Shown here: one piece after another, positions 18,001 to 44,792 of the stretch
How the letters are laid out: the number at the start of each line of letters is the position of its first letter
Position numbering within the stretch: position 1 is the stretch's first letter
Origin: Amphiscolops sp. MND2022
Taxonomy: Eukaryota
Length of the DNA stretch: 64,000 nt
NCBI GenBank assembly: GCA_964187785.1
Contig: OZ076409.1
Span: 50,842,001-50,906,000 of the forward strand
Direction: 5' to 3'
Translations under genes and position numbers: made by a program
The notes under the pieces: generated by a model
Databases searched by the model: none
Told to the model about the DNA's origin: nothing
The model's input: the letters and a program-made list of their open reading frames with translations, nothing else

Positions 18001-18092
18001 TCAGCAATCAATGTAGCAAAAGTCATCATTGATATAATGACCAAACAAGTATACCTACCAACAACGCTGACTACAGACAGAGCAACGATGTT
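12014..18092 (+). mobile_element. Degenerate Ty3/Gypsy retrotransposon 2, 5' part (interrupted in integrase by element A)
   Basis: gag from ~12487 (MPTTRKQKKA) with knuckle-like CNYC and CGTCGTTNH motifs, then protease, RT (YVDDIGIAA at ~16323), RNase H (LMTDSSF), HHCC and integrase start (IDLLP...VLTAIDV). The 5' LTR (~12014-12470) is tentative. Confidence 0.9.
14809..18092 (+). pseudogene. pol: Gypsy 2 pol remnant, 5' part
   Basis: Fragmented ORFs 14809-15048, 15081-15554, 16113-16316, 16326-16835, 17651-17970. Ends ...YLPTTLTTDRATM(F) at the element A junction. Confidence 0.88.
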
Positions 18093-18115
18093 CATTACGA
18101 TACATATCCCCGCAA
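18093..18115 (+). repeat. Element A left terminal inverted repeat
   Basis: First 13 bp match the right end perfectly; one mismatch and one indel over 22-23 bp. Confidence 0.92.
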
Positions 18116-18414
18116 GCAAGTTCCAAGATCTTGCGACTTGCATTAATAACCAATCACAGTGAGTTATTACGATGTTGACTGTTTTACACACTTTTCTCCT
18201 ATTACACCAAGTGATAATTAGTTACACTGAATGACTAAAATTCACTAATTGACTGGTTTACACTATTTCCCGGTCCATAAATTTACACTAATTGACTGAA
18301 TTTCGCACTGATGCAGTACTACGCACTTTGACTAAATTACGCGATTTTCCACTACGCATTTTGACTGAATTACCCCGTCTTACTAATTACGTGGTGTAAA
18401 TTAGTCAAATAGTG

Positions 18415-18942
18415 TAGCACAGTAATGAACTTGACTATTTTACGCGTTTTGTGAGTCATTGGTTTACCTATATTAAAGATGGTTTTATAACCTTTGTTGT
18501 GAAGATTGAAATGCATTAATTTCAGTTCCGAAGATTGATGTTTGAGTTAATGTAAAAAAACATCAATGTTGGTTGATGATTTGTATTGGTGATCTAAGTG
18601 ATTCGAATTTATTCACGAGAATTCAAATCATAAAGTTTATGTTTAAAAATATTGCTTACTGTCATGATCAGTAAGAAATAGGTTCAAATCATAAGGTACC
18701 GTTGAAAATTTTGCTTACTGTCATGATCAGTAAGAAATTAGTTCAAATCATAAGTTACCGTTGAAAATTTTGCTTACAGTCATGATCAGTCAGAAAAAAG
18801 TTCAAATCATAAGGTACCGGTGAAAATTTTGCTTACTGTCATGATCAGTAAGAAATTAATTCAAACAAAGCAGTAAAACGAACTTAAGAGAATTTAGGTT
18901 AATTTTTTCTGAGAAATCATTTTAAATTGGAGAAGATTTGAT
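18415..18942 (+). repeat. ~530-bp subterminal direct repeat, copy 1 (contains ~59-bp tandem units)
   Basis: TAGCACAGTAATGAACTTGACT...GGAGAAGATTTGAT is nearly identical to 43282-43809. Confidence 0.92.
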
Positions 18943-19195
18943 ATTTAATATGATTTGATGGTTTGATGTTGAAGCATGTTTTGTAAGTGTTCCCCAGATT
19001 TGGAATATATTTGAATAACAAAATATTTGAATAACAAATATTGGAAGTTTTGACAACAAGTAGTCATGTTTTGTTTGTTTGACAGTGAGCAAAGTGACGA
19101 GAAACTCTTTGAAGTGAAGTGTCCAAAATGCAGATGGAAAAGCTTCATTCCCAAGAAAAACTGAAACTTCCAGAAATACCCAAATACTTCATTTT

Positions 19196-19395
19196 NNNNN
19201 NNNNNNNNNNNNNNNNNNNNNNNNNNNNNNNNNNNNNNNNNNNNNNNNNNNNNNNNNNNNNNNNNNNNNNNNNNNNNNNNNNNNNNNNNNNNNNNNNNNN
19301 NNNNNNNNNNNNNNNNNNNNNNNNNNNNNNNNNNNNNNNNNNNNNNNNNNNNNNNNNNNNNNNNNNNNNNNNNNNNNNNNNNNNNNNNNNNNNNN
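19196..19395. other. Assembly gap (200 N)
   Basis: Run of N. Confidence 1.
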
Positions 19396-20133
19396 CCCAG
19401 AAGAGTGTGCTTGCTATTTGTTTCTTGTAGGAGATAGCTTTCTAGAGAATAGAGTCATGGTCAGGAAGCAATTAAGTCAAATCATTAAAATACGATCGAG
19501 AAATTTGCTTACTGTCATGATCAGAACTGTTCATTTTAATATATCGTCAGCCAATTAAGTTCCTCCCGCTATATATTTATTCAATTAACGCAATTTGCTG
19601 AGCAGTGCAAGATTATAAGGTACTGAAATCCAATTGACTACAAGGATCGGTGGCATAAACGGTAGCATACAAGGCTGTCGATCTCTAGGACTGGGTTCAT
19701 TTCCCGGTGATGAAATTTTTTTTCATAATTGAAATTTAATTGGAATAAAAAATCAAAATTATACAAGATTACGGAACCAAAAATTGTCTAAATATTGTCA
19801 ATGCATACAGTGGGGGTAGAGGCTTTTCTTCTACAGTGGGGGAAATATCAGCCGGTGAAATTCTGAGAAAAGATCCTCAAGTTAACGTTGAGATCCGTTT
19901 TTCGAGAGAGAAATAAAAGATTTTGGCGAAAAAAAAGAATTAAATTGATCATTTTTTTTCATCATGACACCTTCAAGGGTCACCTTCGTCGTCATGTTTC
20001 TTTTCCAATGATTCTTTTTTTCTTTTCTTTTCACAACACATAATCATCATGATAATGATTATGATGATCAAATAAGCTCTTGATAAATGCAAATATTTCA
20101 AAAAATTCAAACATTTTTTACATTAAATGAACA

Positions 20134-20637
20134 CAGGCATGCGCAAAATACAATTGCCATAATATTTTCATCGAATATAAATAATGGTGTACGGTCCAAC
20201 CTGCCAGTGTGCAATAAATAATGGCCCTGAACCTCTTTCAAAAAATAAATAGTGGACATTATTTCAATTTTTTACCATTAACGGAATGAAAAAGCATGTT
20301 GTTCTCAGTATTTACAGACTAAAAATGTGTCTCTGTAGCGCACCGGGTCACCGTGATATCTTGATTTGTTTAACCAATCAGATTTCAATCAACATATCAG
20401 CGTTTGTGAGGAATTCAAACCACCAGATAACGTATTTCGAGACAACGTTACTGAGAAATAGGCCAGAGAGTAAATATTGGCCAATTCTGAAATAATGGGA
20501 AAGTATAGGAAACTCAGAAAACAATTTATGGCCCTGAAAAATTCTTTAAAAAGAAATAATGGATATGGTTTCGTTATCAGCAATAAAAAGTTTTATGGCC
20601 CTTATTTTTTCCCTACATGATTTTTTGCGCATGCCTG
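20134..20637. mobile_element. Non-autonomous hAT-type MITE
   Basis: 15-bp TIR CAGGCATGCGCAAAA and 8-bp TSD AATGAACA on both sides. Confidence 0.92.
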
Positions 20638-21426
20638 AATGAACAGTAATCACTCAAGGTCAGTTATTGCAGTAATAAAGGAATTTGAATAGGTCTATAG
20701 GCTATCATAACTAGCACTTTGAATTGATTTTCGACAAGCACTTAACTTAATGAAGGAGGAAAACTCAGCCGCGTTTACAGTAACTTGCGAAATTTGAGCC
20801 ATACCGGTCGAGTAAAAAAGTTAATTGCGTTGGTTCTTTTCTGCTTTCTCGGAAATAAATTTGTGAAATCATTAAAATAAAAAGACTTAGAACTGACTGA
20901 ATTAGAAACACTTACTTTTGTATTTATTCTCGGAAATCTTTGCACTTCTTATAGGTTAAGTTCTCATTTAACTTTTATTGAATGACTGGGGTCGTTATTA
21001 CTGCAATCCCTGGCTACAACCAATCTAAGTTTAACTAAAATAGGACGGACAACTAGTTTGGTACACTGTAGCAGCAGTTGTTTGATACACTGTTATTTGA
21101 TACACTGGCAGCCTGTTGTTTGATACACTGGAAAGGATACGACTTGACACTAATTGAGTTCGTAATAAGCCTGACTCCCAGATTGACACACATCAGCTAC
21201 TGGCACCAAGCTTGTACGCGCTGACTCATGATGGCGGCCAGAAAACGATTCCTCTGGGGCTTGAATTCTGGAAATTATAATTTCAGAATGATAATCTTTC
21301 AATAATTCGATGATGATTTTGCTTCTTTCAAAATCAAGAACGATAGCTTCAAAAAAGAAATATGAGTGGTAAGTAACATGACATCTGGTGACCAGATTTG
21401 ACTCAAGTTGAAAGAGTTCCTCAAAT

Positions 21427-24400
21427 TTACTTTGGAATGAATTTTGAAGTAGCCTCAAGATTAAATTTGTACGAATTACCTGTCTCGCGGGGAATGGAGG
21501 TGCATTTCAATATCCCGATTGACTTCATAGTCTCAGCCACGGAAGGGTGCTGGTATGCAACAACTTCAGGTGTTGAGATGTGTTGCTCGTACTGCCGCTC
21601 TGGGGGGGATGCTACTAAGGAGGAAAGCAAAGGGTAAGGGGCGAGAACGATCAGCTCATCATTTGTGAAGGCGCTGTCAGGAATTCTGTCACCATCATCG
21701 TTTCTCGTTGTCCACTTCGCAGGATAGTGAGCTCGGGACAGGTTCAAATAACGGGACAGGTCTGACAGGCAAGCTACAGAGACTTGGTTCTCAAATCTGC
21801 TGAGGGTGAATATCTGATCGTCAAGATATTCTCTGGAGAAACGAGGGTAGAGCTGAAAAATAAAAGATGTCAATACTAAAGATCTTCCTCAAATTGAATA
21901 CTTCAAGTTCTCATTCTGAAAATGTTTAGTCATTCAAAAAACAATGTTCCCGTTACATAATCGAAAACAACTTGTTCGCAACAACTAATCTCACCATTTG
22001 CACTTCCTGTTCATTGTAGATGCTGTCGATTGCCCTATGCATCACACGGAAGTCTCTAATCATCATACAGCCTGAGGACTGTGCAGCTTTGTGGAGCAAT
22101 ATGGCGAACAGCTCAGGAAGACCTGGGAACTTGTCATGCGCTGGAAAGGATGACTCATTCTCAATGGAAGATCGAATCAAATCGGAGTGGCCTTCTGCGA
22201 GAAAATTCGACCCCACAGCGATTGAGTTCCCTTTCGTGAGGACGAAGTGCAGGAATTGTGATGGCATCACAAGTATGTCACCAGGTTTCACAGTGATCAC
22301 TGCACATCCGCCCTCCAAACGTTTATGGCAAGCGAAAAATGTTGGCCTGTAACAAAACAGAAGAACATCAGTTTGTTTTGATATCCATAAACCAGAATGG
22401 TTGATAAATATTGGTTGAGAAATTTGAAAGATCGAAGAAAGCTTTCAAAGGTTCATTGTGCCTCAACTTGAATGTTTTGAATACATCAAAGTTTGAAGAG
22501 GTTTAATGAATTCATTTCATCGTTTTAAACAATATTATTTTTCCAGAACATCATTTATAAATCATTGAATTAACAAAACTTAACCATAAATTAAAAAAAC
22601 TGATTTGATTGATGTTTTTTTTAAAAAAATCGGATTTTAATTGATTCCTGATACTAAAACATTTTGAATACAATGAAATTCAGCAACATTTGGACTATTA
22701 TTAGCTATTAAAATTGGGTCCACTAACTGTGCATCTGTCTCTTGGCTAGTGTATTGATTGAATAGCTCAATATTACTCTGCGTCGGTGCCACTAGGAAAA
22801 AAATCTTCTCGCCCGTAAGTACAGTGTACTTCACGGACGTTGCAGAGAGGTCCTGGTGCCAAGTGGTCTGGCATCCATCGTTCGACACGAGCAGGTAATA
22901 TGAGGTAGCACAAGAGAACGGTTCTGATCTGTCTCCGAGGATCTCATCAACAAAGGGGTTGATGGATGTTTGCTGAATCATCGTCGGGACAGTGTACAAT
23001 TTCTGAAAAAAAAACCATAATTGGGATTAATCTCAAACCGATCATGACAGTAAACAAAATGGGTTGATACCATAATTGGGGTTAATCTCAAATCGATCAT
23101 GACAGTAAACAAAATGTGTTGATATCATAATTGGGATTAATCTCAAACCGATCATGACAGTAAACAAAATGGGTTGATACCATAATTGGGATTAATCTCA
23201 AAGTGATCATGACAGTAAACAAAACACAAAAATTGCACCTTTGGTTTCAATTGAATGTCGATTACATTCAGAGGGTAGAAAGGGCTGCTGGTGTCATCCC
23301 GGAGGAACTCATCCCGCACAGCGTCAAGGGTCAAATCACGTGTCTAAAAGTGAGAAAAAAGAGCAAATCACACCCCTGAATTAAACCATCAATTCAACTT
23401 TCTGTTTGAAATTTGAAATACTTTTTCGAATAGTATTTACTGTTTCGAGAAATTTTGTTTTGAAGTCACTTTGTTGTGAAATGAGCATGAATACTTGATC
23501 AATTTTACCTCTCCAAGTTTTGCTGACTTGACGTTGATGGTATGATCCGGATGCTGGAGATTCTGGGGTTGGAGAAGCTTCACCAGCTGATCGAAAAATG
23601 GCTTTTTGGCTTGAGGCAGTTTAATTTGCCGACAATGATCAACCCCATTCTGCCAAACTATGGGGATACCATTCCTGATCAACTGAGAGACTTTCCTCGC
23701 TTGATCTTTTATGGGACCATTCCATCTCGCAATAGGGAACTCCGGGGAACTTAGCGGTACGTCCAGACAAAATTGGAAGTATGCAGGAGAGCCAAAAACA
23801 TCAGGGGGCGTGGCATGAAAGTCACTTGGAGCGGGACACTCGCTTGATGAGGGGGAATCGGATAGGTCATCAACCTGTATAAGTAGAAAACGACACTTTA
23901 TGACACATAACAGCGGAATACGGGACAGTGAAAAAACGAACGAGCTGGGAAATTGAAGCCAAAATTATGTACTGTTGAAGTCTCCTGCATGTGAGCATGC
24001 TAATTATTCAATTCCCCAGAAGTATTTAAAACCTCCCACTTTAAAAAAAGAAATATATGCCTTCTACATCATAATGATTACGAATTAAAATTAAATTGAG
24101 TCAAGTTGATATTCAGTATTGGGGATGATTTTGGGTAATAACTGATCTTATGAGTCAATGATATAATGATTTAGTACCTTACTAATGATTTAGTGCCTTG
24201 CATAACTCACTTGTGTCTTGCAGCTCGGATGTTTGGAGATGTGGATTTGCAGGTCGTATGAATACGAAAACGTCTTGCCACATCCATAGCACTTGTGACT
24301 TTGGCGTCTCCCTCCGCGTGCTGCCTCTGTAAATTACAATCATATTTTGCACCGTGACGTTGAATCATGGATTAACAGATTTGATCTGATGTTCAAAGCT

Positions 24401-25108
24401 TAGATACAATTGTTTACTGGCGCGATAGGATCAAAGTAGCGATTTGATCTGATGTTAAAAGTTTAGATAATTTTGTTTATTGGTATGATCGGATCAAATT
24501 AGCGATTTGATTTGATGTTAAAAGTTTAGATAATTTTGTTTACTGGCATGATCGGATCAAATTAGCGATTTGATCTGATGTTCAAAGTTTAGATAATTTT
24601 GTTTACTGGCATGATCAGATCAAATTAGCGATTTGATCTTATGTTCAAAGTTTAGATAAATTTGTTTACTGGCATGATCAGATCAAAATAGCGAATTGAT
24701 CTGATGTTCAAAAGGTAAATAAATTTGTTTACTGGTATGAACAAATCACTTACTGTACTTGTACATGGTGATCGCTTCTCCTTTTCTTTTCAAGTCACGC
24801 TGCTTCACACAGTATTTGGTCAACTGATGCTTCTTCATGAACTTGGCCTGCATCAGTACCTGTCCACACTGCTCGCAAGTTCGCTGCCTGAGCTTCCACT
24901 CCTCTCTTGACTCATGGAGGCAGGTGGACTTCTGGTGGCGCGTGACGTTGCTTTTCACTTTGGACGAGTAGTCACAAGTTCCTTGTCCGCAGTGAAAAAG
25001 CTTGCTCGACGGAGAATATCGAGGTGTGGGTGCTGCCGGGGTAGAATCGGAACCCTGAGGGGATGCTGCTGAGGTAGAAGTGGCGAGAGCACTTTCACTT
25101 GGAAACAT
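21427..25108 (-). CDS. Spliced C2H2 zinc-finger (x3) + JmjC histone demethylase-like gene (KDM7/PHF8/KDM2 type), element A
   Basis: Phase-compatible GT-AG exons: 25108-24754 (two fingers), 24326-24211 (third finger CYGCGKTFSYSYDLQIHISKH), 23874-23509, 23343-23239, ~23002-22728 (WHQDLSATSV..GEKIFFLVAPT), ~22346-21996 (PGDILVMPSQFLHFVLT..GSNF), ~21852 onward. H-x-D...H iron triad is intact. The 3' end is uncertain and may continue to 21150 by frameshift. Confidence 0.88.
23006..23225. repeat. Intronic 55-bp tandem repeat x4 carrying the element A motif
   Basis: CATAATTGGGATTAATCTCAAACCGATCATGACAGTAAACAAAA repeated every 55 bp. Confidence 0.9.
24375..24740. repeat. Intronic ~63-bp tandem repeat x6 carrying the element A motif
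   Basis: GATTTGATCTGATGTTCAAAGTTTAGATAATTTTGTTTACTGGCATGATC units. Confidence 0.9.
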
Positions 25109-25189
25109 GAAAACTAAAAAATGGGATCATGAAGGTTTTCTCAAAATATTCTTAGGAAGAAATTGAAAAAGCTGAAAGACTATAGAAAA

Positions 25190-25625
25190 ACATGAAAAGG
25201 TCTGAGTGATCATGCCAAAACCATGAAAAGGCATGAGTCACCCTGTCAAAAACATGGAAAAGTCTGAGTGACCATGTCAAAAACAAGAATTGGTCTGATT
25301 GACAAGGTCAAAAACATAGGAGGGTCTGAGTGACCATGTCATAAACAAGAATAGGTCTGAGTGACCATGTCAAAACTTGAATAGGTCTGAGTGACCATGT
25401 CAAAACTTGAATAGGTCTGAGTGACCATGTCAAAAACATGAATATGTCTGAGTGACCAATTGAAAAACATGAAAAGGTCTGAGTGACCATGTCAAAAACA
25501 TGAAAAGATTTGACTGACAATGTCAAAAACATGAAAAGGTCTGAGTGACCAATTCAAAAACATGAAAAGGTCTGAGTGACCAATTCAAAAACATGAAAAG
25601 CCTTGGGGTCTGAGTGACCATGTCA
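25190..25625. repeat. ~30-33-bp minisatellite (GGTCTGAGTGACCATGTCAAAA)
   Basis: More than ten units. The same unit occurs inverted at 33515-33910, 37113-37388 and 37828-37870. Confidence 0.9.
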
Positions 25626-27447
25626 TGAAACAACATGAAAACACACGATGAACTAAATTTAAACTGAAACACTTTGATTCCTAGTGATTTTTTCTTTTGC
25701 ATGGCTTCGATAGCCAGACATTGTCTTATAATTAACATTTGACAATAGAGCGACGTGGACATTAATGTTTTTGTTGAAATTGAGGCTGCAGGATTTGTCA
25801 ACGTTGAACTTCAATGAAACGACCCAAGCTGTCCCGTCAGCAACTTTGTCCCATTCGTGTCCTAGAACAGTGTCCCACACAGCTGTTGAGTACTGTCCTT
25901 CTTCTTTCAAACTGTAAGTGACTGAACCTCCTCCAGCAGGAATACCAAATGCATGAATCAAAACGGAGCAGCTTGGAGCAATGTCTTTCTTGAAGTCCCT
26001 AATTCTAGATTGATCGCTATGAAAATGCATCAGCAAGTGCTTCAGGTTAGAGTACGCCCAGTATACTTTCGCATAATTATTGTCAAAAGGAACATCTGGG
26101 GTACTATGAAGTGGCAAAGTCCGATCTTTCTTCATGTAAGAAAGAGGTACCGTTGATTTGAAGAAAGGGTCATCTTCTTTCTCAACTTCGATGAATAGTC
26201 TCGAGTCTTCGATGAAAATCCCGAACACCCTCCACGAGAACTCAGTGCCCACCACGTTTACGATGTCTCATTTAACTGCAACCCCATTTTTGATTGGGAC
26301 GGAAACAAGCTCTACACGACCTTCAGGTTTCGTTAGGAAAGGTTCGGCTAGTCCTCCAGAAAGCACCTTCGCTAATTTCGGTTTCTTTCTAGAAGGCAGT
26401 TCAGTTCGGATGTTGCAATCGTCTTCTGTATCTTCTTCTGTTTCTTCTCGAAGCGTCACTCTCTTTTTCTTGTGAGATTCTTCATGCTTTCCCGGTCGTA
26501 GTTGAAAGTAAGAAATTGTCGTAGTCTTGGGGTCTGAGTGACCATGTCATGAAACAACATGAAAACACACGATGAACTAAATTTAAACTGAAACACTTTG
26601 ATTCCTAGTGATTTTTTCTTTTGCATGGCTTCGATAGCCAGACATTGTCTTATAATTAACATTTGACAATAGAGCGACGTGGACATTAATGTTTTTGCTG
26701 AAATTGAGGCTGCAGGATTTGTCAACGTTGAACTTCAATGAAACGACCCAAGCTGTCCCATCAGCAACTTTGTCCCATTCGTGTCCTAGAACAGTGTCCC
26801 ACACAGCTGTTGAGTACTGTCCTTCTTCTTTCAAACTGTAAGTGACTGAACCTCCTCCAGCAGGAATACCAAATGCATGAATCAAAACGGAGCAGCTTGG
26901 AGCAATGTCTTTCTTGAAGTCCCTAATTCTAGATTGATCGCTATGAAAATGCATCAGCAAGTGCTTCAGGTTAGAGTACGCCCAGTATACTTTCGCATAA
27001 TTATTGTCAAAAGGAACATCTGGGGTACTATGAAGTGGCAAAGTCCGATCTTTCTTCATGTAAGAAAGAGGTACCGTTGATTTGAAGAAAGGGTCATCTT
27101 CTTTCTCAACTTCGATGAATAGTCTCGAGTCTTCGATGAAAATCCCGAACACCCTCCACGAGAACTCAGTGCCCACCACGTTTACGATGTCTCATTTAAC
27201 TGCAACCCCATTTTTGATTGGGACGGAAACAAGCTCTACACGACCTTCAGGTTTCGTTAGGAAAGGTTCGGCTAGTCCTCCAGAAAGCACCTTCGCTAAT
27301 TTCGGTTTCTTTCTAGAAGGCAGTTCAGTTCGGATGTTGCAATCGTCGTCTGTATCTTCTTCTGTTTCTTCTCGAAGCGTCACTCTCTTTTTCTTGTGAG
27401 ATTCTTCATGCTTTCCCGGTCGTAGTTGAAAGTAAGAAATTGTCGTA
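25602..27447. repeat. 924-bp-period tandem duplication of the 3' part of the unknown cargo gene
   Basis: ORFs 25659-26255 and 26583-27179 are offset by 924 bp and differ by one residue. Confidence 0.95.
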
Positions 27448-27851
27448 AGATCAATTCCATCTAGCTGGTCGTCAAAAAATTTCCCGTCTTCAATTGGGAC
27501 GACTACAGGTGACACAAGCATCTGTTTTCTAAAGGGATCATTTTTCATGACATATCCCTCTTTCACGTTCCTCGTCAGTACTCCATCTCGTTCCATTGAT
27601 TCCGTGTAATGAATCGGATCATTTCTGACTCGCTTTTCTTTGAAGTAGCCAAGAACTTCAAGACTGAGGACCAACTCAATTCGCCTGCTGTAACTTGCGG
27701 CTGTGCCCTCGTTTTCTCTGATAGGCCATTTTTCAGGAAATTCGTGGAAGCGTGGTGGCGCTTCTACAATTCCGTTAGCGTACTTGCTTGAGTAGTTCAG
27801 CCATTGTACGGTGGCCTGAAAAAAAGCCATCATGGTCATGGTCATGATCAC
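26583..27851 (-). pseudogene. Unknown cargo gene of element A (~420 codons, one in-frame TGA at 27192-27194); homologue of 48327-49640
   Basis: ORFs 27192-27851 and 26583-27179 are in the same frame. Shared blocks with the B gene: NDPF, VP..NG....I....G.EF, D..LG..WD. True start may be further upstream or spliced. Confidence 0.78.
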
Positions 27852-28419
27852 CTGAATCTATTTGAATATAATTGGAAAATGGATATTGGTGGGAGTTTCC
27901 CAAAGTGTAAGGCTTCATTTATTGCTAGTTTTATGAACAAAAAAATGCTCCGCTCCCATTTTTTGTTTTCCCGGCGATTTTCACACACAAAAACTATCAC
28001 GGGATTGAGAAATGTATCATGATACATGTATCAAGATATCATTTTGAAGTTTATAAATTTAAAACATCTTGAAGCTTGAAGCTCATACTAATACAGTTTA
28101 CAGTGTTTTTAGGAAAAAACTATACCGCCAGAATCATATTGTTTGGGAAATTTTTCCGTCAAAATTTTTCTGGAATCAAAAATTTGTAAGTGGGTCAAAA
28201 AATGAAAAAAAAACTAAAGAATGATGTTTTGGAAATTGCTCTCGACCAATGAAATGAGCGCGTGAGGCATTGATCAGCAAAGGATATTTGTTTGTTTGGT
28301 TTCCTTCCGCATGAAATGTTGCTTCTTCCAGAATCACTACTGTTTAGTCACGAAACGTGAAAAATGAAAAAAAAATTCTGAAAAACTTCGGTAGTGGAAA
28401 AAACAGAAATGAGCAAAAA

Positions 28420-28487
28420 CACTCGCCCGGAATCGAACCCACACACAAGATATGAGAATAAAGGCAATTAACCACTGAGCTACCGAT
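28420..28487 (-). repeat. tRNA-derived (SINE-like) remnant
   Basis: Minus strand TAGCTCAGTGGTTAA (A box) ... GGTTCGATTCC (B box); no convincing cloverleaf. Confidence 0.5.
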
Positions 28488-29170
28488 GTTGCTCATGCAG
28501 CCATCAACAGCACATATAAATTACTGTGATTAGGAAATCGTCCCCTATGCGCTAAGCGTCGTTATCAACCAATTAGAATGATTAGGTACCACAAAAAATA
28601 AGAGCAAAAAACATAAAAACTAACTTTTGAAAAATTAGTTTCAAATAACATAAAAATGAACCCGAACACCTGGCTAAGAAATCAAATTCACGAAATTTTA
28701 TTTGTAATTTTCATACTTTTTTCAGTGAATCTTTTGAATTGTGAATGCTTTTGACAACTAAAACTTTCTCGTAAACTATTTTACTTTTATGTTTAGTAAA
28801 ACTCATTTCATTTTTATGTTATTTGAAACTAATTTTGTTTTTGTTATTTGCTCTATGTTCAACTAAGCTATTTGGGAATTCACCAATTAGAATGTGTATT
28901 TTCTCTCACTTTCAATTCTGATTGGCGCATCAAGTGAAATCTCTGGCGCAGAAAGGACACTTCTGGTATTTTCCCAGTTTTTCAAATTCAGCTAATTGTA
29001 ACTTTCTCAATTTTTGTACCAGAAAAATTTAAAAAAACACTTAGGCAAACTAGATGAAACTCCAAGAAACTTTTGTTTCTTATGTTTTTCAAAATTCTAG
29101 ACAACTTCGAAAAAATCGAGCTTAAAATCGCCCCGAGTGCCTTTTTCTTAATCACAGTACTGTATTTAGG

Positions 29171-33464: not shown

Positions 33465-33514
33465 ATTTCAGATCTACTAGGTCTTGTGGCAAACTTCTTT
33501 TTTGAAATCATTTG

Positions 33515-33910
33515 GTCACTCATCATTTAAATCACTCAGACCTACACTTTTTTGACAGGGTCACTCAGACCTACTAGGTAGTACAAAGTCTTTTTTTGAC
33601 ATGGTCACGCAGACCTACAAATTTCTTTTTTGACGTGGTCACCCCAACCTATAAATATATTTTTTTGAAATGGTCACTCAGCACTACAAATTTCTTTTTT
33701 GACATTGTCACGCAGACATACTCTTTTTTGACAGGGTCACTCAGACCTACTAGGTAGTACTAGGTAGTACAAAGTCCGTTTTTGACATGGTCACTTAGAC
33801 CTACAAATTTCTTTTTTGACATGGTCACTCCAACCTACAAATGTATTTTTTTGAAATATCATATACTCAGCACTACAAATCTCTTTTTTGACATTGTCAC
33901 TTTTTTGACA
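33515..33910. repeat. Minisatellite (TTTTGACATGGTCACTCAGACC) upstream of the transposase
   Basis: Reverse complement of the 25190-25625 unit. Confidence 0.88.
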
Positions 33911-33947
33911 TGACGTTTCATCCCAACGTTTTAAATTTTAGTTTGAC

Positions 33948-36900
33948 ATGTTCAAGCAAAACCCACCATCTCTGACGGGAAATCAAATTATGTGAAGCTT
34001 GTCTTCCTGAACATTCTCTTTCCAACGATGTTCCCCCTACATCCCGAGAAGAAAAATGGTCTCGAAAAAAATGGCCCACGAAAGATCAAAACATACATCG
34101 AGAAACATTTCAACGGGTCAAAAGTCCAGATCAATGATGTCTATAAGCCTAACGGGATCAAGTCCGAACGATCTGCTGCACTGCGAGAAGATATATTTGA
34201 CCTCATGATGATATCTGCCCCACCGTGCACACTTCCTTGGTCTCCCGAAAGACTACAATATTTGAGACATTTCTATCCAACTTTGCCCCTTGCTTGTATA
34301 GACGCACAAGAATTGAAGACTGTTGATGTATCGATCCTGAACGCACCTGATGCCCCAGCCGACTTATCGACAAACTTATCAATTCAATCAACTTGCCGTG
34401 ACATGGTTCCAAACACATCAAATGCTCTGACAAACGATGACATATCAATCGAGTATCGCCAGTTCAGGCTTGCTTTTGAGAAGTCGGAGAAGTCACAGTT
34501 CTGGTCTAATTCATTTAAACTTTTGACAGAGTCAGCCGACTTCCTGAATCAGTTCGCTTTGAGTTTGAGAGACTATCTCTACAAACAAAAAGATGTTTCA
34601 AAAAGAAAGAATACCATTGTCTGTCGACTCCTCGGAAAGCTACTTCAAAATTTTTTCAGTAAAGATAGAGACGAAACACAAATCGATATCCAATGCCTCC
34701 TTATGTTGAACAATCCTCAGGACCTTCTCGTGAAGATACGCCAGTTACTCAAGTGCCCATTCGTGAAAGCGACGATATTGCCATCACGACTCGAACTTTC
34801 AATCATCAATAGACGGATGAATGATTTATTCAGAACTATGCTTGAACCATCGAGAACGCATACCGACTTCCGTGTAAACCTTGTGAACTTTGTGAAGTTT
34901 GTTGCCCTTCATGTCTATGGAAAGAATTCCATCTCGGGATTGCGAATCGACGTTTATGGTGATGCAATGTCATGAGGCAAACGAGATGTCGTGAGAATGG
35001 CCTTCCGCATCTTAGATACTGGAATCGAAACTGAACAATCTTCGACGCATGTTTTCACTTTCGCAGTTTTCGACGTAAGTTTTGGCTTATGTGTTTTCCA
35101 ATTTTGCTTTCTGATTTGATCTTCAATGTGAATATATTTCTTAGAATTTTGCATACTGACGTCATCCTCCATGTGGTTTATGTTTTGTTTTCACTTTACT
35201 TACTGGCATGATCTTCCAAAAATTTTATGTTTCTTCAATTTTGCTCACTGGCATGATCTTCCATGTGGTGTATGTTTTCACAGGGGAAAGATGTACGAGT
35301 CAATTTAGAGTATAACCTGACAATGGCGAACGTATTAGAACACAATAGGTGGTTATACAATGAAACCAAAGCATTGCATGAAGAAGGAGCCATTTTGAGT
35401 TGTTCGGGTGATTCGCCTTTCCAGCTGAGATTACTGAAAGGAGTCAGTAGTGACGTTTCATGCCTTTCGAAAATGTGCCTGTATGTTCCTGATCCTCCCA
35501 TTTTGTCGCAAATTGTCCCAAAGCAGCAAGCGAAAAAGAACAGTGAAGCACACAAGAAGGAGAAAGAAGGGATGGGTGCGATTCTTCCTTCCACGGTTGA
35601 TCATTTCACTGGGAGACGAACTGTGCTGACTATTGATATCAACGAACAAATTCCAAACGAATCGCTTATGTTTTTGAAGTCCACATTCAACACGTGCCCT
35701 GATGTTCTTCACATGATTGTTCGATCTGTCGGAAGTGATCTGAAGCTACACGTCGATTCACTGATCCTATCTAATATGCTTGCGATATCGAAATTAGAAT
35801 GTAATATTACACAAAGAAATGTAAAGCCGCCTCGTTTCAGTTTTGAAATAGTTGATAAGCTTTGTAAGGCTGTTTCTTTGAGCTTTCGAGACGCTGAAGT
35901 CATCATCTCGGACTGTACACGGACGAGCGAATATGGAAGAATGGATATTCCTATATTCGAAGGTGTATATTCATTCGAAGAGGCACATGTTTACAAGGCT
36001 GATCAGGCGAATGAAAATACACCATATAATGTACTGATATCCTTGGTGGACGGTTTAGAAACATCGTTTCCGAAAGGCATTGGTAATTCACAACGGAAAT
36101 TGGCCAATCTGCAATTTCAATCGCTGTACCAACTGCTGGAGCTATTGCGACAACGGGAGTTGACTGATCTCCAAAGTTGTAAAGACCTTTACGAGACATA
36201 TTATCAAAGTACCATATGTTTATTTGGGGATCGTGCCTTGACTCCGTACAAACTGAAGATCGACATGCTGCTGAGGATATTCGAAAAGGGAGAGATTTTA
36301 GCCCCATTTAATAACATGACCGAAGGCACAGAAAAGAGTCACCATACAGCCAGCAAAGATTACAATTCGAGAACGATGCGCGACGGCGGTAACGATGCTT
36401 GGAATATGTCGTCAAATTATCTTGACATACGATTTTCATTCTTTCGAGCCATTGATGTGTCGTCGTCAAAGTCGAAGTTGCTTCAACAGTGCCCCGACCA
36501 AATAGCCAAGACGTATCTACAGATTTGCCAAGAGTCGATTGATGTGCCCTCTCTTGACATCGGAAGGACGAGCGATATTTTCAGATGCATGAACTTTGTT
36601 GTTCTCGGAACATATGGGCATTTGAAAGAAACTCAAGGAAGCTTGGAGAGGAAGATTTTGGAAAACGCTGGCATCGTTCTGAGCAATACAGACATCATTA
36701 ATCGAAGCAAGTTGAGTTTCCTAAGCCACCATTACTGTGTTCTCCCGAAAAGCAAGTTCATAGATACTTTGGTAAAAAACACGCCCGGCACGAACGAGAC
36801 ACTTGTTACCAAAGCGGTGTATCATACCACACTGGGCAATTGGATTTACTTGAAGGCAGAATTCATTACTGAATGTGTGAAGAGAAACATGTTGATGGAT

Positions 36901-37095
36901 CCCAAAGATTACACTTTTGAACTGGATGCCACAGCAAGGGCTAAATTGAGAAAAATACGTTTCCAGAACATCGCGCCGCAATTACAAAGACAATCACAAC
37001 CTCTCAGGACTGGGTCGATAACATACCATACCGCAATCAGGAAGTATAAAACCGCCCAGAAAGCATTGAAAAGGAAATTCAATAGCGTCGAATAA
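33948..37095 (+). pseudogene. RAG1/Transib/Chapaev-like DDE transposase fused to a C-terminal BRCT domain (~980 aa), element A
   Basis: D1 in IDVYGDA (34961), D2 in SCSGDSPF (35410), PDVLH (35710), LTPYKLK, E in MTEGTEKSH (36331), then BRCT-like FRCMNFVVLG...LERKILENAG...LKAEFITECVKRNMLMDPKDY. Phase-0 intron 35075-35283. In-frame TGA at 34973 and a 1-nt deletion just after ATG 33948. Confidence 0.82.
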
Positions 37096-37112
37096 TGATA
37101 CCACCACTTCCA

Positions 37113-37388
37113 CATTGTCACTCAGATCCCCTTTTGATTTTGACATGGTCACTCAGACCTACAATTTTTTTGACATGGTCACTCGGACCTACATATTTCT
37201 TTTTTGAAATGGTCACTCAGACCTACATATATCTTTTTTAACATGGTCACTAAGACCTACAAATTTCTTTTTTGACATGGTCACTCAGACCTAGAAATAT
37301 CTTTTTGACATGGTCACTCAGACCTACAATTTGTTTGACATGGTCACTCAGACATTCAAATTTCTTTTTTGACATGGTCACTCAGACC
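37113..37388. repeat. Minisatellite downstream of the transposase (same unit as 33515-33910)
   Basis: TTTTGACATGGTCACTCAGACCTAC units; the array resumes at 37828 after the MITE. Confidence 0.88.
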
Positions 37389-37827
37389 CAGGGCTGTTCA
37401 CAATTAAAATGCAATCATTTTTTGAGTCTACAATTTCATTTATATTTTTAACATTGCCAACAATTATAATTGCAATTATTGTTACATTTTTTCCTATATA
37501 AAACAATATATGTAAAACATTTGAAATTAAAAGAAAAACAGAAAGTCCCGGTTGAGTGCCTAGAAAATTTGACTTTCAAGATGGTGTGGTAGCCTGGATT
37601 TTCTGAAAAATGTCCTTTTCCAGACTTGAAATTTCCTCTCCGTTCTGATACTTTCTCAGCGCTGTTTCAAAAACCGGTGAATGAATTACACAGTGACGCA
37701 GGAACAAAATGTTCCATTTATTTACATGCGACAATTTTTATTGCATTTTTTTCAAATGGTCACATTTTCTAGTACCAGTAGAAAAATGACAATTATTCTT
37801 ATGACAATTCATTTTTGAACAGCCCTG
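37389..37827. mobile_element. Non-autonomous hAT-type MITE inserted in the minisatellite
   Basis: 12-bp TIR CAGGGCTGTTCA and 8-bp TSD CTCAGACC. A related left end occurs at 40484-40630. Confidence 0.92.
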
Positions 37828-37907
37828 CTCAGACCTACAAGTTTCTTTTTTACATGGTCACCTTTTGACATGACGTTTCATCCAAACATTTTTTATTTCA
37901 GTTTGAC

Positions 37908-38047
37908 ATGTTCAAGCAAAAACCCACAATATCTGACGGGAAAGCAAATTATGTGAAACTTGTGTTCTTGAACATTCTATTTCCAACGATGTTCCCCCTA
38001 CATCCCGAGAAGATAAATGGCCTCGAGAAAAATGGCCCACGAAAGAT
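37908..38047 (+). pseudogene. Truncated paralogous 5' end of the element A transposase
   Basis: Reads MFKQKPTISDGKANYVKLVFLNILFPTMFPLHPEKINGLEKNGPRK and matches 33948-34086. Confidence 0.88.
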
Positions 38048-39246
38048 ATATGCAAAAATCCATGAACTCATATGGTAGGATCGATGGAATAATTACACTC
38101 AAGTTTTGTTTACTGGAATGATCAGACAAGTATAATTTTGTTTACTGGCATGATCAGAAGACAACAATTATGGTAATTTTGGGACCATGTCAACTATTTT
38201 CCACCAGGTACACCTTGCAGGATTCTGTCATTTATTTTATTGGATCAAAATTTCAACGCAAACGATGTCGACATAATGGTATTTGAACCTTTTGTCTTAC
38301 TACCCCCGCCGTTTTTTGAGGGAAAATGACATGGTCCTAATTTTGTGTACTGGCATGATCATAATATACAAAAACCAAAAATGAAAAACAACAAAATGAT
38401 TACGTACCAAATAGCATAAGAGCAAATAACAGAAACAAAATTAGTTTCAAATAACATAAAATTGAAATTAGTTTCAAATAACAAAAAACCAAAAACCCGG
38501 TTAAACAATCGACATCAGAAAATTTCGTCTGTATTTGCCTCACAGAATCTTTTGTATTGTGAATTTTTTTGACCACTAAAACTTTCTCGTAAACAATTTT
38601 ATTTTTGTTAAGTGAAACTCATCATAAAAATAAAACTGTTTATGAGAATTTTTTTGTTTATATAGAAGTTTAGAAAATTGAAATTAGTTTCAAATGACAT
38701 ACAAATGAAATGACTTCATTTTTATGTCATTTGAAACTAATTTCAACTTTGTTATTTGCCAAATGCTCTTGTGTTATATGGGAATTCACCAACAAAAACT
38801 CAAAAATCAAACCTGTCTTCCTTTTTGGTTGTGCTTTGGATAAAACTGATCGTCGGTCTGGATAAATTGCAGTTCAGCAACGAAAAACTCAATTGGGCTC
38901 TGAATCAAATTGGATTCAAAAAGTTACGGATTTTATTGAAGCTAACAATTACAGTGTAATTACAGTGAATCAAAACAAGGTGCAAATTGGAAACGTCGAA
39001 CACGCACTTGCGGTATTGAACTGGAATTTGATTGGCTAATTTTATGCATTTTTAGTCACGTGACTGCGTGTAAACTGTTTTCGACGCTTTAAATATTCTA
39101 CGATTTGAATCGTCCTCGCAAAACGGTTACCATAGCAACAAGGTAAACAAATTAAGCGAGCTTGAATAACGTGTAAACTGTTTTCGACGCATTAATATTC
39201 TACGTTTTGAACCGTCCTCGCAAACGGTTACCATAGCAACAAACTA

Positions 39247-39770
39247 AACAAGACGGGAACGTCCCAAGTCGGCGCCATATCTTAGGCTCAAAAATATTCA
39301 AGGAACAACTATTGGAAAAATTTGGAAAAAAAAATTTTTCAAAAAAAAAATTTTGATTTTTTTTCGAAAAAAGTATTTTTTAGGTCGCACAATGCCGAAA
39401 AACTCAAAAAGAGGCCATTCAGGCTCATTCAACGTTTTCTACAAACCGAAAACTTCAAAAAAAATCAAGGGGGTACCCTTTGATAAATTTCGAAAGTTTT
39501 CGAAAAAAGTCACATAGTGCCGAAAAAAAACCCAAAGGGGGGACCCTTTGGTCTTACCTGTACTTTTGGAAGCATTAAAAAATTTATGGTTTAGTGCGGG
39601 ATTCGAACCCACGCTCTCCGGCTGGGTCGAAGATAGAAGATGAACAAATATGAAAGATGAACAAAAATTGTAAGAAAAGTGGACCACTCAGAGTGAGATT
39701 GTCAACTGAAAAAAAAAAACTACTCACTGTAAGAGTCGGGCTTTTTTCCTTAAGGGAAAAGGCGCCGACT
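39247..39770. mobile_element. Short non-autonomous insertion, Helentron/HINE-like
   Basis: Interrupts a local tandem repeat at AACAAG. Asymmetric subterminal inverted repeat AGTCGGCGCC (39267) / GGCGCCGACT (39761). Internal B-box-like GGATTCGAACC. Confidence 0.55.
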
Positions 39771-42664
39771 AACAAGTTAAGCGAGCTTGAATAACGTGTA
39801 GCTTTCGCGATGTAGCCAATACGGTCCATTCAGTAAACAGAAACCACTGCATGCAGAAATCAAAATTAGACTCTAATTTCAGAAGGTGAATTCCCAAATA
39901 ACATGAGAGCAAATAACATAAAAACAAAATTAGTTTCGAATAACATTAATATGAAATTGGTTTCTCTTATGTTATGAAGTTTGCTCTTATGTTGGATCTT
40001 CTCTGTTAATTCCCCCAGTGTTTTGATAAAGTTAAGCGGTTAAGAGAAGTTATTTTTGATTTGATAATAACAACCAATCAAATTGCAGTATTTCTAACTC
40101 TTACTGTAACTGAAACTTATCCCTCATAATCATTACCATGATGGTGGGGAATTAAAATTTCTGCGCTTGCTGCAGGGGGGGGGTTGTAATTATTAGAAAA
40201 GATCCCTTAAGTAATTTGGGAATCCACCAAAAAATCTTATTTCGTCATCTCAGATTAGCTTCGCATAACAATTTGAAGTTCGACGTTAAAGTTGCATTTT
40301 TAAACAGATTGTTAATTTGGCGAATTGTGGCTTTTGATTAACTCCCAAAGTAAGTCAACTACCTTCACGAGAGAAAACAACTAACAAGCCAGATGAAAGA
40401 AATGTTTTACTTTTGTTAACTGCCATGATTTGATTACTGGTATGATCTGCGAATAAAATCAGATTCAAATTAAGCATCACAAACAGGGCTGTTCACAATT
40501 AAAATGCGATCATTTTTTGATTCAACATTTTTCTTTACATTTTTTAACATTGTCAACAATTATAATAGCATTTATTGTTACATTTTTTTATACAAACAAT
40601 ATGTAAAACCTTTGAAATTAAAAGAAACAGTCACTTCTTTGACTGTTTGTATAACCCTCAATAATTTTAACGAAACTTCCTGAAAAGGTTTTTCTACACG
40701 ACTAGTAACTAAATCCGAATATTTAATAACATAATAAATTATATTGGCCGAAAACACAAATACATTGGATCAAAAAATAAATAAATTGCATCGTACAAAA
40801 CCACAAATAACTATATTTTCTTTATTTATTGTCAATATATTTAAATACAATATATTTTTTTACATCCCTGATCGTAATGGGCCCAAAATGTTTTCTTTTG
40901 ACTCTAATTCATTCAATAATCACTGATTGCTAATTCAGTATATATTTTTCAAAAGATTCGAATAGATTTTCAAAAGTATTTATATGTGTTCAATGCCTCA
41001 GCATAATGGGGATGGTGGCACAGTTGATAATTCCCTTGGGTATTTGAAGCTAAACGTGTTTAATAGTACCTCCGGATCGATCCCCGCCAACAACCCACTG
41101 GCTAGGCGATTCTATGCAGACAACCCTCATGAAGACTCCCTTCATATCAAAAGACATCGTTGTTGTTCCTCTTAACGACGATAGGAAGAGCCCATATCGA
41201 AGGATCACTGCGCCACTGCATCCCTTTTAATGTCCAATTTTTGATCTTACTAAATCTCGGATAAATTCAGATAAAAATGAATGGGTGAATTCCACATGAA
41301 ATGAATTCATATGGAATGAACTTTTTAAACCTAAATTCAATAAATGAAATTAAATTCAAGTTATATGAATTTTGTTCACTGGCATGGTCAGGTTTTGTCA
41401 TTGTGAAAATTCACATTCAAATGATGAATGAATGAACTTTGATTACTGGTATGATCAGATTCAAGTTGAATTCAGATGAATAAATGAGTTTATTCGCAGA
41501 TCTTTTCAGTAATCAAATCTAATCTTGCCAGTTATTCAAAATGAACTTCATTTTGAATTCAAATCACTTAGAATTCGATACAAACCAGCATTCAATACTG
41601 ATGTTATGTTGATGCTCAATACTGGCATTAACTAAAACATCAAGCATTGAAGTGAACTTTTGTTTGCAACATTGTATCAACACACGCGTGTCAATACATG
41701 TAAAATATTTTGTTGCCAGGTTTAACGAGTTGCGTAAATTCAATCTGATTTTACAGTGATCAAAAATCATTTATTCGCGCTCAACAATCAACAACTGATT
41801 CATCTTTTTTTCACATCAAAACGGGATGCAGTGGATCTTCAATTGTGCCTTCGTATCGCTGTGATAACAACAATCAACAACTGATTCATAATTTTTTCAA
41901 ATCAAAAAGGGATGGATTTTCAATTGTGCCTTCCTATTGCTGTGAAAGGGAATACCAACGATCAGCAACGGATTTTTTTTCATATCAAAAAGGTATGCAG
42001 TAGGGCAGTTAACTGGACCTTCAATTATACCTTCCAAATATGCCTTCTGATCGCTGTGAAGTGGTAATACAGAGTGGTCTGTATAGAGTCGCCGAGGAGT
42101 GTGTATGTGAAGGGATCGATCCGGCGGTAGACAACGGTGCTAGCTTCACTTCATACACAAGGAAAATATCAACTGCGCCACCATCCCCTACATGCCGTTG
42201 CATTGCAAACAAATATAAACTCACACAAACTTATCATTCGTTTCTCTGACTGTATTGCATAACTAACTGTATTGTGTAACTAACATACTGATATTTTTCA
42301 TGACTCCTAAATTCAATTACCAAGTTGTTAATTTGTAATTTGTCCTAACGTTGAATTGATTTTATTGATGATGACTTACATGATGTTTCTAATGATTTGT
42401 TATACATTTAAGAATTTTTTTGTTAAGAATAATTTATTATTCTGAATAACGCCTATGCATGATACAAAATAATTTAAATTTTTGAAATCAAAAACTTGAA
42501 TTGTATAATGTTTTGTAATTGAATTGTATAATTTTTCAAACAGTTCTAAGTAACGATTGCATTTTAAACAGCTTTACAATTACGCTTGTATTATTACAAT
42601 GCTTCACTCCAATGCGTTAATATTTCAGTAATCTCAGAAATCCAAACCATAAGGTTTATGTTTC

Positions 42665-42741
42665 AAAATTTTGCTTACTGTCATGATCAGTTTGATTAAT
42701 TATGATTTAATCAAACTGATCATGACAGTAAGCAAAATTTT
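42665..42741. repeat. 77-bp hairpin with an inverted pair of element A motifs
   Basis: AAAATTTTGCTTACTGTCATGATCAGTTTGATTAA...TTAATCAAACTGATCATGACAGTAAGCAAAATTTT. Confidence 0.92.
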
Positions 42742-43281
42742 TACGCACTAGAAGTTTTGTCAAAGTCAGTTTCGTAGGTGAAAGGAAAGTGGCGCTGCTT
42801 GTCGTTCACTTGTGGGTATATGTGGTGTATATATGCATATAATTAGTATCACTGTAGCTATTCTAAAATTTGGTTTAGCCTTTTAGCTTCAAATAACATA
42901 AAAATGAAATTACTTTCATTTAACATGAAAACTGATAACCCGGTGAAAAAAATGAACTCACGAAATTGTATTTGTAAATTCGTGACCACTTTCTCTTCAA
43001 CAATTTTTGTTTTGTGAAACTTTTCTATCAACTTTGTCGGGCACAAATTACTGCTGAGATTACAAATCTCAACGAAAAATAACTTTTGCCCAGTATAATT
43101 TAGTTTTAAAGAGGCTCTCAGTTAAGGGATCACATAGTGTCGCCCATAACAAGACCCACGCCGAGAACGTGGCCTCTGAAGGGTCTCAAAGATTGTAAAT
43201 ACAACTAAGTAACAATACTTCAACACTGTGCACTGTGGTGTGTTGGAAAATGAACACATGTTTAGTTCATGTTTAAACATC

Positions 43282-43809
43282 TAGCACAGTAATGAACTTG
43301 ACTATTTTACGCGTTTTGTGAGTCATTGGTTTACCTATATTAAAGATGGTGTTATAACCTTTGTTGTGAAGATTGAAATGCATTAATTTCACTTCCGAAG
43401 ATTGATGTTTGAGTTAATGTAAAAAAACATCAATATTGGATGATGATTTGTATTGGTGATCTAAGTGATTCGAATTTATTCACGAGAATTCAAATCATAA
43501 AATTTATGTTTAAAAATATTGCTTACTGTCATGATCAGTAAGAAATAGGTTCAAATCATAAGTTACCGTTGAAAATTTTGCTTACTGTCATGATCAGTAA
43601 GAAATTAGTTCAAATCATAAGTTACCGTTGAAAATTTTGCTTACTGTCATGATCAGTAAGAAATTAGTTCAAATCATAAGTTACCGTTGAAAATTTTTCT
43701 TACTGTCATGATCAGTGAGCAATTAATTCAAACAAAGCAGTAAAACGAACTTAAGAGAATTTTGGTTAATTTTTTCTGAGAAATTATGTTAAGTTGGAGA
43801 AGATTTGAT
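43282..43809 (+). repeat. ~530-bp subterminal direct repeat, copy 2
   Basis: Near-identical to 18415-18942. Confidence 0.92.
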
Positions 43810-44506
43810 GTTTATTGATTTTTTTCACTTGCTAGATGTTTCCGTTATTCCGTTTTGATTCAATGATGACTAGTATTGGATTATGAGTGATTTGAATTCA
43901 ATCACGAATTCAAATCATAAAGTTTCTATTTAAAAGTTTTGCTTACTGGCATGATCAGTGAGCAATTAGTTAAAATCATTAAACTCTAAATTGACTTAAT
44001 TAGTTAGTCACACTAAATGATTAGAATTCTTTTGCATGCATGTGTCATCCATCGTAAACTTTGGTGTATGTATGTATGTGTTAATGTACGTATGCGTTAA
44101 TTGTTTAATCGCGTAATTCAGTCAAAGTTAATGCGTAATTTAGTCAAAGTAATTAAACTCCAAGCAACTATCCAATGTAAATTTATGTGTTTGAAGCAAC
44201 TATTATATTGCCGTAAACTAGTCAAATTTTGACTACTTTACACTTTTCGGTAGTTTAGTAAATGAATACCTCATTAAAAGTGGAATTTAATCAAACTTTG
44301 ACTGAATTACACCTTACTAAATTAGCTTGTAAATTTTGACTGTTTTACACTATTTACTAACTACGCATTTTGACTGGAATTCACCGCGTTCATATTACAC
44401 TGTGCTGCACCACTACACGAGTGGATTACTACAGTCTTTGATCAATTTACAGTAATTGACTATTTTACCCAAAATACTATTTACACCAAGTGATCACTTT
44501 CCACGT

Positions 44507-44528
44507 TTGCGGGACATGTATCGTAATG
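44507..44528 (-). repeat. Element A right terminal inverted repeat
   Basis: TTGCGGGACATGTATCGTAATG, followed by TT and resumed integrase sequence. Confidence 0.92.
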
Positions 44529-44792
44529 TTCACTTCCACGATTATTGCGGAAAGTACACGAATTTTGGGAATTACCACTGGAACGTGCAACAACCAAACA
44601 TACGCAGACGATCGGGAAACTAGAGCGAATACATCCAACACTCAAAACGAATCTCAAAACGGCATGTGGGGAATATCGCCGACAATGGCATAAATACTTG
44701 CCACTTGCAGTTCTGAATCATAATACAAGTTATCATGCAACCATTGGCGGCGAGCCAACACGGATATTTCATAGTCGAGTACCATATATTAT
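44529..44792 (+). pseudogene. pol: Gypsy 2 integrase, resumed 264-bp segment between elements A and B
   Basis: TSTIIAESTRILGIT/LERATTKHTQTIGKLERIHPTLK...WHKYLPLAVLNHNTSYHATIGGEPTRIFHSRVPY, containing the integrase catalytic Glu region. Confidence 0.92.

Follow-up and report, generated by a model that had tools for sequence, protein, structure and literature searches.

What has split a Gypsy retrotransposon in Amphiscolops sp. MND2022, and why does the insert carry genes that resemble histone-modifying enzymes? The locus lies in a 64,000-nt stretch of DNA (GenBank assembly GCA_964187785.1, contig OZ076409.1, positions 50,842,001 to 50,906,000), which we call the window; positions below are window coordinates on the plus strand unless prefixed G000. 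An initial annotation of the window had described the insert, element A, as a single mobile block with base-precise ends. Our main interest is in its conserved chromatin-enzyme genes, which that annotation had not analysed. Element A is probably a DNA transposon, one copy of a multi-copy family with a predicted RAG1/Transib-fold transposase and with long-conserved PHF8-like and SETD8-like genes that likely alter histone methylation in the element's favour. The transposon anatomy is close to certain, and an anti-silencing or chromatin-steering role of the accessory genes, as suggested by their sequences, is rather likely. The ends of the element and its immediate surroundings are as follows.

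16243..18092, plus strand: 5' part of a decayed Gypsy pol (reverse transcriptase, RNase H, integrase), the insertion target, with Pfam RVT_1 at 16317-16832
18091..18092: left copy of the target-site duplication (TSD), TT, from junction reading, Gypsy empty-site alignment and end-pair tally
18093..18115, plus strand: left terminal inverted repeat (TIR), 13 bp perfect, imperfect to ~22 bp
44507..44528, minus strand: right TIR, counterpart of the left one
44529..44530: right TSD copy, TT, from the same three sources
44529..44792, plus strand: Gypsy integrase, continued as far as the insertion of element B, from alignment to natural Gypsy copies
44793..64000 and 698 bases beyond, minus strand: element B, a distant relative of element A; 19,906 bp, TSD AT, ends CAATAC..GTAATG

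Element A occupies 18093..44528 (26,436 bases including 200 N) and has the ends CATTAC...GTAATG. Its first base, 18093, lies where ACGATGTT gives way to CATTACGATACAT, and its last, 44528, where ATGTATCGTAATG gives way to TTCACTTCC. The TIRs match perfectly over 13 bp and extend to ~22 bp in total with one mismatch and one indel. Within the window the terminal 13-mer occurs once per strand, and in the 1.07-Gb genome it occurs 2577 times (1322+1255), compared with 81 (45+36) for the reversed control. In an empty-site test, the left flank and the right flank were each aligned on their own to 14 uninterrupted natural Gypsy copies, the closest of which is ~83% identical to the target; these copies align over 16243-18079 and resume at 44528. 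The two flanks overlapped by exactly 2 nt in 12 of the 14 copies, and the remaining overlaps (7 and -3) are due to local indels in those two copies. The target was therefore split precisely, and the base-precise ends given by the initial annotation were confirmed. Its description of a precisely split integrase was right about the split, but the integrase was already broken, with an in-frame TGA at 17968-17970 and an alignment that, in 13 of 14 comparisons, breaks 46-48 nt past the right junction. The same Gypsy was split a second time at 44792 by element B, 264 bp downstream of element A, and resumes 698 bases beyond the window.

The empty site is identical whether the TSD is read as 2, 4 or 6 bp and so cannot choose among these lengths, which were decided by other insertions. 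The flanks of the full-length copies of family A, to which element A belongs, are listed here by contig.

Window: TT/TT
C3: TA/TA, 25,037 bp
C2: CG/CG, 24,576 bp
C2: TT/TT, 23,977 bp
C5: AT/AT, 21,294 bp, gap-free
C11a: TC/CA, mismatched

Hence, a 2-bp TSD flanks five of six full-length copies, window included, as well as both family-A derivatives of 11-12 kb. It is also present in a sister family whose transposase is 70% identical to that of family A (13 of 16 long pairs of ends and all three shorter pairs, 3.4-12.2 kb) and at 17 of 19 short elements. The control, arbitrary end pairs chosen without family matching, gave no 2-bp match in six pairs, and the chance of a match is ~0.076 per pair. 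The pair L204/L205 was left out of this tally because an inverted duplication makes one and the same end appear as two. Of 42 end pairs, 1 fits the 4-bp reading and 0 fit the 6-bp reading, and both readings were rejected; a 3-bp match was found in three of the 42, one of which also matches at 2 bp. The duplicated bases have no fixed sequence, with all 16 dinucleotides present among 160 flanks, and the flanks of six long copies show no mutual similarity. The TSD of element B is likewise 2 bp (AT/AT). Comparing flanks across genomic ends, as the initial annotation had proposed, thus fixes the TSD at the 2 bp it had preferred, and other copies share the ends and 2-bp TSDs instead of having unrelated termini.

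The initial annotation had also cautioned that a scaffold gap interrupts the element, and the gap is present as it stated.

19196..19395: scaffold gap, 200 N; ungapped homologues have ~200-225 bp with a (TA)n run

A 200-N gap is found at the same place in several family-A copies, and the (TA)n run likely causes the contig breaks. On C10 and C2 (38.7 Mb), family-A left ends run into unrelated DNA beyond a 200-N gap, and family-A bodies on C11, C4 and C10 begin after the gap and have no left end. Scaffolding errors at the (TA)n run, with ends and bodies separated or mis-oriented, are suggested at G000:C10:57,486,990, C10:57,562,000-57,590,000 and C2:38,712,063. Since such mis-joins are seen elsewhere, a scaffolding error could have joined two ends across the gap in the window, so that element A would not be one insertion. 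However, the Gypsy target stays in register on the two sides of element A, with an overlap of 2 nt, and the window is colinear with two ungapped copies that read through the gap, C5 (AT/AT) and C11a, which makes a mis-join here very unlikely, to the point of being barely credible. Full-length copies colinear with the window at 89-97% identity are located on C3, C2 (two), C5 and C11. The claim that the whole block, introns and cargo included, moves as one unit was upheld by these independent copies of 21-25 kb, which have 2-bp TSDs of their own (TA, CG, TT, AT) and one of which is gap-free.

The unit contains the following genes and open reading frames (ORFs).

33947..37095, plus strand: DDE transposase with a C-terminal BRCT domain; intron 35075-35283, 979 codons when spliced
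34961-63, 35410-12 and 36331-33, plus strand: predicted catalytic triad D, D and E, from the 50-sequence alignment
21480..25108, minus strand: gene for a C2H2 zinc finger and a PHF8/KDM7/KDM2-like JmjC domain; seven predicted exons with GT-AG introns, stop-free frame, at least 645 codons
25108-24754, 24320-24211, 23874-23509, 23343-23239, 23002-22728, 22346-21995 and 21852-21480, minus strand: predicted exons of the JmjC gene
32357..33464, plus strand: SETD8/PR-SET7-like SET gene (Pfam SET, E 4.5e-6), frameshifted in the window copy
31198..32095, plus strand: conserved ORF upstream of SET, of no known family (Pfam), possibly earlier exons of the SET gene
25662..27857, minus strand: conserved gene of no known family, its last exon inside a 924-bp tandem duplication specific to the window copy

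Homolog searches returned 16 transposase, 16 SET and 3 JmjC proteins, and a profile search gave 327 transposase clusters at 50% identity (E up to 0.001). In an alignment of 50 transposase sequences, the D of WGD, the D of SGD and the E are invariant, and D-x-x-H, the Y of TPY, E-x-x-E and an H are invariant or nearly so. BRCT was the sole domain that Pfam found in the transposase and is present in 20 of 50 relatives. No Pfam transposase family was detected in the 50 relatives, including none for Transposase_21 (TnpD) at E 0.05 and none for Plavaka; a sequence search of the PDB gave weak BRCT matches and nothing else. The Atlas leads to RAG1 and Plavaka stayed below the mark of 0.9 (Plavaka 0.86), with Transposase_21 weak at 0.84. 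The fold was taken from an AlphaFold model of the relative P0015 (pLDDT 83.5), which is ~80% identical to the transposase of element B and ~30% to that of element A; an earlier 10-sequence model (pLDDT 36) was discarded. The model of P0015 matched RAG1 with a Z score of 19.1 (rmsd 4.0, 417 aligned residues; Foldseek E 1.4e-7), followed by HzTransib (Z 17.0), BbRAG1L (16.2), the P element (11.0) and BRCT domains (~10). On this model, the family transposase is predicted to have a RAG1/Transib fold. From the second D to the final E, the 50 relatives have no conserved C-x2-C and just a partial C-x-C (19 and 29 of 42) beside D-x-x-H, and their alignment has no H(3-4)H in this interval, where TPYKLK lacks His. 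P0015 has single His columns at 510, 632 and 727, with a His cluster only after the E.

The best PDB match of the JmjC gene was PHF8 (E 8e-8), followed by KDM2A and KDM7; the three score within tenfold of one another, so the substrate is not readable from sequence. Pfam Cupin_8, JmjC and zf-C2H2 remained below the cut-off. The H-x-D...H iron ligands are kept in three lineages (WHQD...FLHF in family A, WHTD...YIHT in the sister family and WHVD...PHI in element B). For the intact SET ORF of the sister family, the 14 best PDB matches were all SETD8 (E 1.3e-6 to 2.6e-5). The SET protein keeps what we take to be the catalytic Tyr positions (DYH and FDY) and has Phe at the position that we presume to be the Tyr334 multiplicity switch of SETD8. 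The gene at 25662..27857 had no Pfam and no Atlas match, and a relative of it adjoins a transposase in the metagenome locus L320. The window copy itself has decayed. Its transposase has a premature TGA at 34973-75, just past the first catalytic Asp, where all six other family-A copies caught by a motif scan (C3 was not caught) have CGA, and its SET gene is frameshifted by a 17-bp deletion at 32915/32916 relative to the C3 copy; this copy can therefore encode neither a complete transposase nor a complete SET protein.

Comparison of family A with the sister family showed that the accessory genes are under purifying selection. The proportion of synonymous differences (pS) is saturated at 0.73-0.84 across the transposase, SET, JmjC and both unassigned genes, and the nonsynonymous proportion (pN) is 0.18 for transposase exon 2, 0.28 for SET and 0.30 for JmjC. 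The unassigned genes gave pN 0.29 and pS 0.78 (25662..27857) and pN 0.25 and pS 0.81 (31198..32095). Within family A, where counts are small, the ratios scatter between ~0.25 and 2.5 and mostly fall at 0.45-0.9, which agrees with decay after insertion. Identity between transposase loci is 99.4-100% in the sister family (36 of 36 pairs) and 97.2-98.8% in family A (15 pairs), and the sister family has spread recently. Queries with SET and JmjC matched each of the 150 genomic candidates scored for either gene, and the copy numbers are lower bounds because every scored candidate matched. The kit of transposase, SET and JmjC genes also occurs in a third subfamily and in element B, which holds a transposase ~30% identical to that of element A, a zinc finger-JmjC gene and a SET gene (Pfam E 3.8e-7) that has the N-H-S of the SETD8 cofactor motif R-x-x-N-H-S. 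The transposase region of element B is duplicated and broken (58656-60519 / 60527-62389; 53611-56170 / 56178-58498). Gene order varies: in the sister family JmjC comes after the transposase and points the same way, this block is inverted in element A, and SET comes last in element B.

How such an element might work can be outlined from these data. The transposase would bind the CATTAC ends and, as its predicted RAG1/Transib fold suggests, excise the whole 21-28 kb unit by cut-and-paste; insertion would occur with a 2-nt stagger and little target preference, and derivatives of short and intermediate size that have these ends would have been moved in trans. Enzymes of the PHF8/KDM7 group act on H3K9me1/2, H3K27me2 and H4K20me1. 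The zinc finger-JmjC protein could thus remove repressive marks (H3K9me1/2, H3K27me2 or H4K20me1) at element copies, and the SET protein could add methyl groups to H4K20, possibly more than one given the Phe at the presumed switch. Selection and motifs together suggest that the demethylase and methyltransferase would act on chromatin to the element's own advantage, most likely by lifting silencing. We propose more tentatively, as an idea that falls short of likely, a so far undescribed lineage of giant, zinc-free, BRCT-tailed transposons with a RAG1 fold whose active histone methylation writer and eraser, each in well over 100 copies, would rewrite chromatin at the element's own copies or at excision breaks.

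Several observations weigh against this interpretation. The RAG1 fold was predicted for a relative 30% identical to the transposase of element A and not for that protein itself. The family-A copy C11a has mismatched flanks, and 3 of 16 long sister pairs lack a 2-bp match, one of them showing a 3-bp match. The zinc-finger exon is less constrained (dN/dS ~0.5, 59 codons). None of 15 metagenome loci, which at 1.1-7.4 kb are too short for linkage, showed SET or JmjC beside the transposase, and the kit may thus be limited to the host lineage. Finally, SET of family A and the sister family has N-Y-R where SETD8 has N-H-S, which is kept in element B, and catalysis in the two families is therefore not assured.

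This last replacement, found in two lineages, and the low overall identity to host-type enzymes would fit SET and JmjC proteins that are conserved but non-catalytic, or that act on non-histone targets such as the transposase, as readers, decoys or scaffolds. Such a role seems improbable to us, as the iron ligands of JmjC persist in three lineages and SET retains the presumed catalytic Tyr positions. The main alternative, which we consider unlikely, keeps the enzymes active and moves their action to DNA repair. The methylation state of H4K20 decides between the recruitment of 53BP1, for end joining, and of BRCA1-BARD1, for homologous repair, and SET, JmjC and BRCT might steer the repair of breaks through this mark, biasing repair of the excision gap toward copying the element back from the sister chromatid. 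The best matches of the accessory genes, the H4K20 writer SETD8 and PHF8, an eraser of H4K20me1, agree with this idea, as may the predicted BRCT domain of the transposase, which in the model matches the BRCT folds of 53BP1 and BRCA1 (Z ~10); however, BRCT folds are generic, and the JmjC substrate cannot be read from the sequence.

The accessory genes could also be host fragments picked up passively, Pack-type cargo that does nothing for the element. Their spliceosomal introns, their likeness to host chromatin enzymes and the broken SET gene of the window copy all have a place in such a scenario, but it is largely refuted and highly improbable: synonymous sites are saturated between the families whereas amino-acid sites are constrained, and the kit persists, in a different gene order, in a lineage whose transposase is 30% identical.

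Known transposon-encoded epigenetic countermeasures come from plants, fungi and oomycetes. The literature searched yielded neither a JmjC-carrying transposon nor a writer-eraser pair, and SET cargo only in oomycetes; Repbase and Dfam entries were outside the scope of this search and may hold the family under another name. The accessible part of PMC9911081 has no mention of JmjC, a SET domain or CMC. In Amphiscolops, selection has retained the predicted writer-eraser pair across lineages with transposases only ~30% identical. Because the pair is conserved and near-identical 27-28 kb sister copies supply intact genes, the anti-silencing idea is directly testable. A transposase family with a predicted RAG1 fold and apparently no zinc site is also relevant to the evolution of RAG1/Transib-type recombinases and to enzymes able to transport more than 25 kb of cargo.

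Outside its genes, element A has the following features.

18415..18947, plus strand: 533-bp subterminal direct repeat, copy 1, containing a 59-bp tandem array; 96% identical to copy 2 and found in other copies too
43282..43814, plus strand: 533-bp subterminal direct repeat, copy 2; 96% identical to copy 1
39253..39770: 518-bp insert, a break in colinearity; other aligned long copies are without it

The repeats near both ends are direct and not inverted, and the sister element has a corresponding repeat of 194 bp (720-913 and 26869-27062); such subterminal repeats could promote internal deletion or tandem arrays. The 924-bp tandem duplication (25599-27447) and the 518-bp insert are missing from the other aligned long copies and therefore probably arose after insertion. 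The motif ACTGKCATGATC, of which element A has 26 copies and the sister element and window 1-18092 have none, is a putative site for the binding of a protein that the element encodes. Minisatellite arrays with 31/34-bp units (25186-25600, 33532-33901 and 37112-37390) occur in inverted orientation on the borders of the block whose direction is reversed compared with the sister family. A flip that turned the transposase block around with respect to the JmjC block between the inverted arrays at 25186-25600 and 37112-37390 fits the window but stays unproven, since the sister family has no match to the array.

Rearranged and shortened relatives were also seen. A rearranged family-A variant (L119-L124, G000:C8:37.51-37.56 Mb) takes the form of a large inverted duplication; its transposase faces the left-type end, and a JmjC block was not detected in it. 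The near-identical 27-28 kb copies of the sister family include G000:C1:88877654-88905900 and C13:55360124-55387650, among many others; this family has a third TIR-like end in its interior, at ~10 kb from one terminus, and a 54-kb tandem dimer on C7. Several copies of one length, 12.2 kb, have sister-family ends and 2-bp TSDs with an interior mostly unrelated to the full-length sister.

G000:C1:71175020-71187264 and 74708302-74720549: loci of the 12.2-kb element (L222-L225)

In the surroundings, a second decayed Gypsy-like element and a ~180-bp satellite-like array lie upstream of the target Gypsy (window 1-7500 and 8275-9680). ORFs at G000:C1 ~50,922,000-50,933,000 (L227-L228) are presumably Maverick/Polinton-like, with what we take to be a protein-primed polB-like gene, an integrase, ATPases and a capsid-like gene.

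How does element A compare with known transposons? Transib elements have CAC ends and 5-bp TSDs, Chapaev elements have 3-4 bp TSDs, Mirage and animal EnSpm/CACTA elements have 2-bp TSDs, and EnSpm/CACTA termini are of the CACTA/CACTG type. The best structural matches of the P0015 model are to Transib, RAG1 and RAG1L (PDB 6xny, 6pqx and 6b40; Z 16-19 over ~410 residues), to which identity is only ~10% and from which the family differs by a 2-bp TSD, CAT instead of CAC ends and missing zinc ligands; a RAG2-like partner was not seen. Mirage, compared by TSD and ends alone, shares the 2-bp TSD and CA-starting ends. The terminus of element A is CATTAC with no CACTA, unlike EnSpm/CACTA, and its family has a TSD of 2 bp, with a 3-bp match in only 3 of 42 pairs, unlike Chapaev. 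PlavakaB has CATCA..TGATG ends and a 2-3 bp TSD; CATTA of element A is one base apart and its TSD is 2 bp, and for Plavaka there was a weak Atlas lead (0.86) and no Pfam match. The TSD of ESTA elements is TA-specific according to the accessible part of Kojima 2025 (PMC12730594), whereas all 16 dinucleotides occur among the 160 flanks.

The same part of Kojima 2025 (PMC12730594) places EnSpm/CACTA, Mirage, Chapaev, Transib, Plavaka and ESTA, along with Lanisha, in a CMCT clade whose defining features are CA..TG ends, a TSD of 2-5 bp and the motifs C(2)C and H(3-4)H. Element A and element B share with it the CA..TG termini, the 2-bp TSD and a DDE triad in a predicted RAG1-like fold; the element A family differs by lacking the C(2)C and H(3-4)H zinc motifs in the 50-sequence alignment. 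Hence, element A works like a CMCT/RAG1-type element and is not filed as a CMCT member; its family is possibly a new lineage. The CACTA/Mirage-type kinship proposed by the initial annotation stands as a CMC/CMCT-type kinship, with CA-starting ends and a 2-bp TSD, but the transposase has a predicted RAG1/Transib fold and is not demonstrably CACTA or Mirage. As for the accessory genes, SET-carrying HarbingerS and MuDR elements of the oomycete Phytophthora, fungal transposons with TET/JBP and the anti-silencing VANDAL elements of plants are cited in the accessible part of PMC12730594. By analogy, element A may share with them the design of a DNA transposon that encodes a modifier of chromatin or DNA marks as a proposed counter to silencing; it differs in transposase lineage and host, and in pairing a predicted writer, the SETD8-like protein, with a predicted eraser, the PHF8-like JmjC protein.

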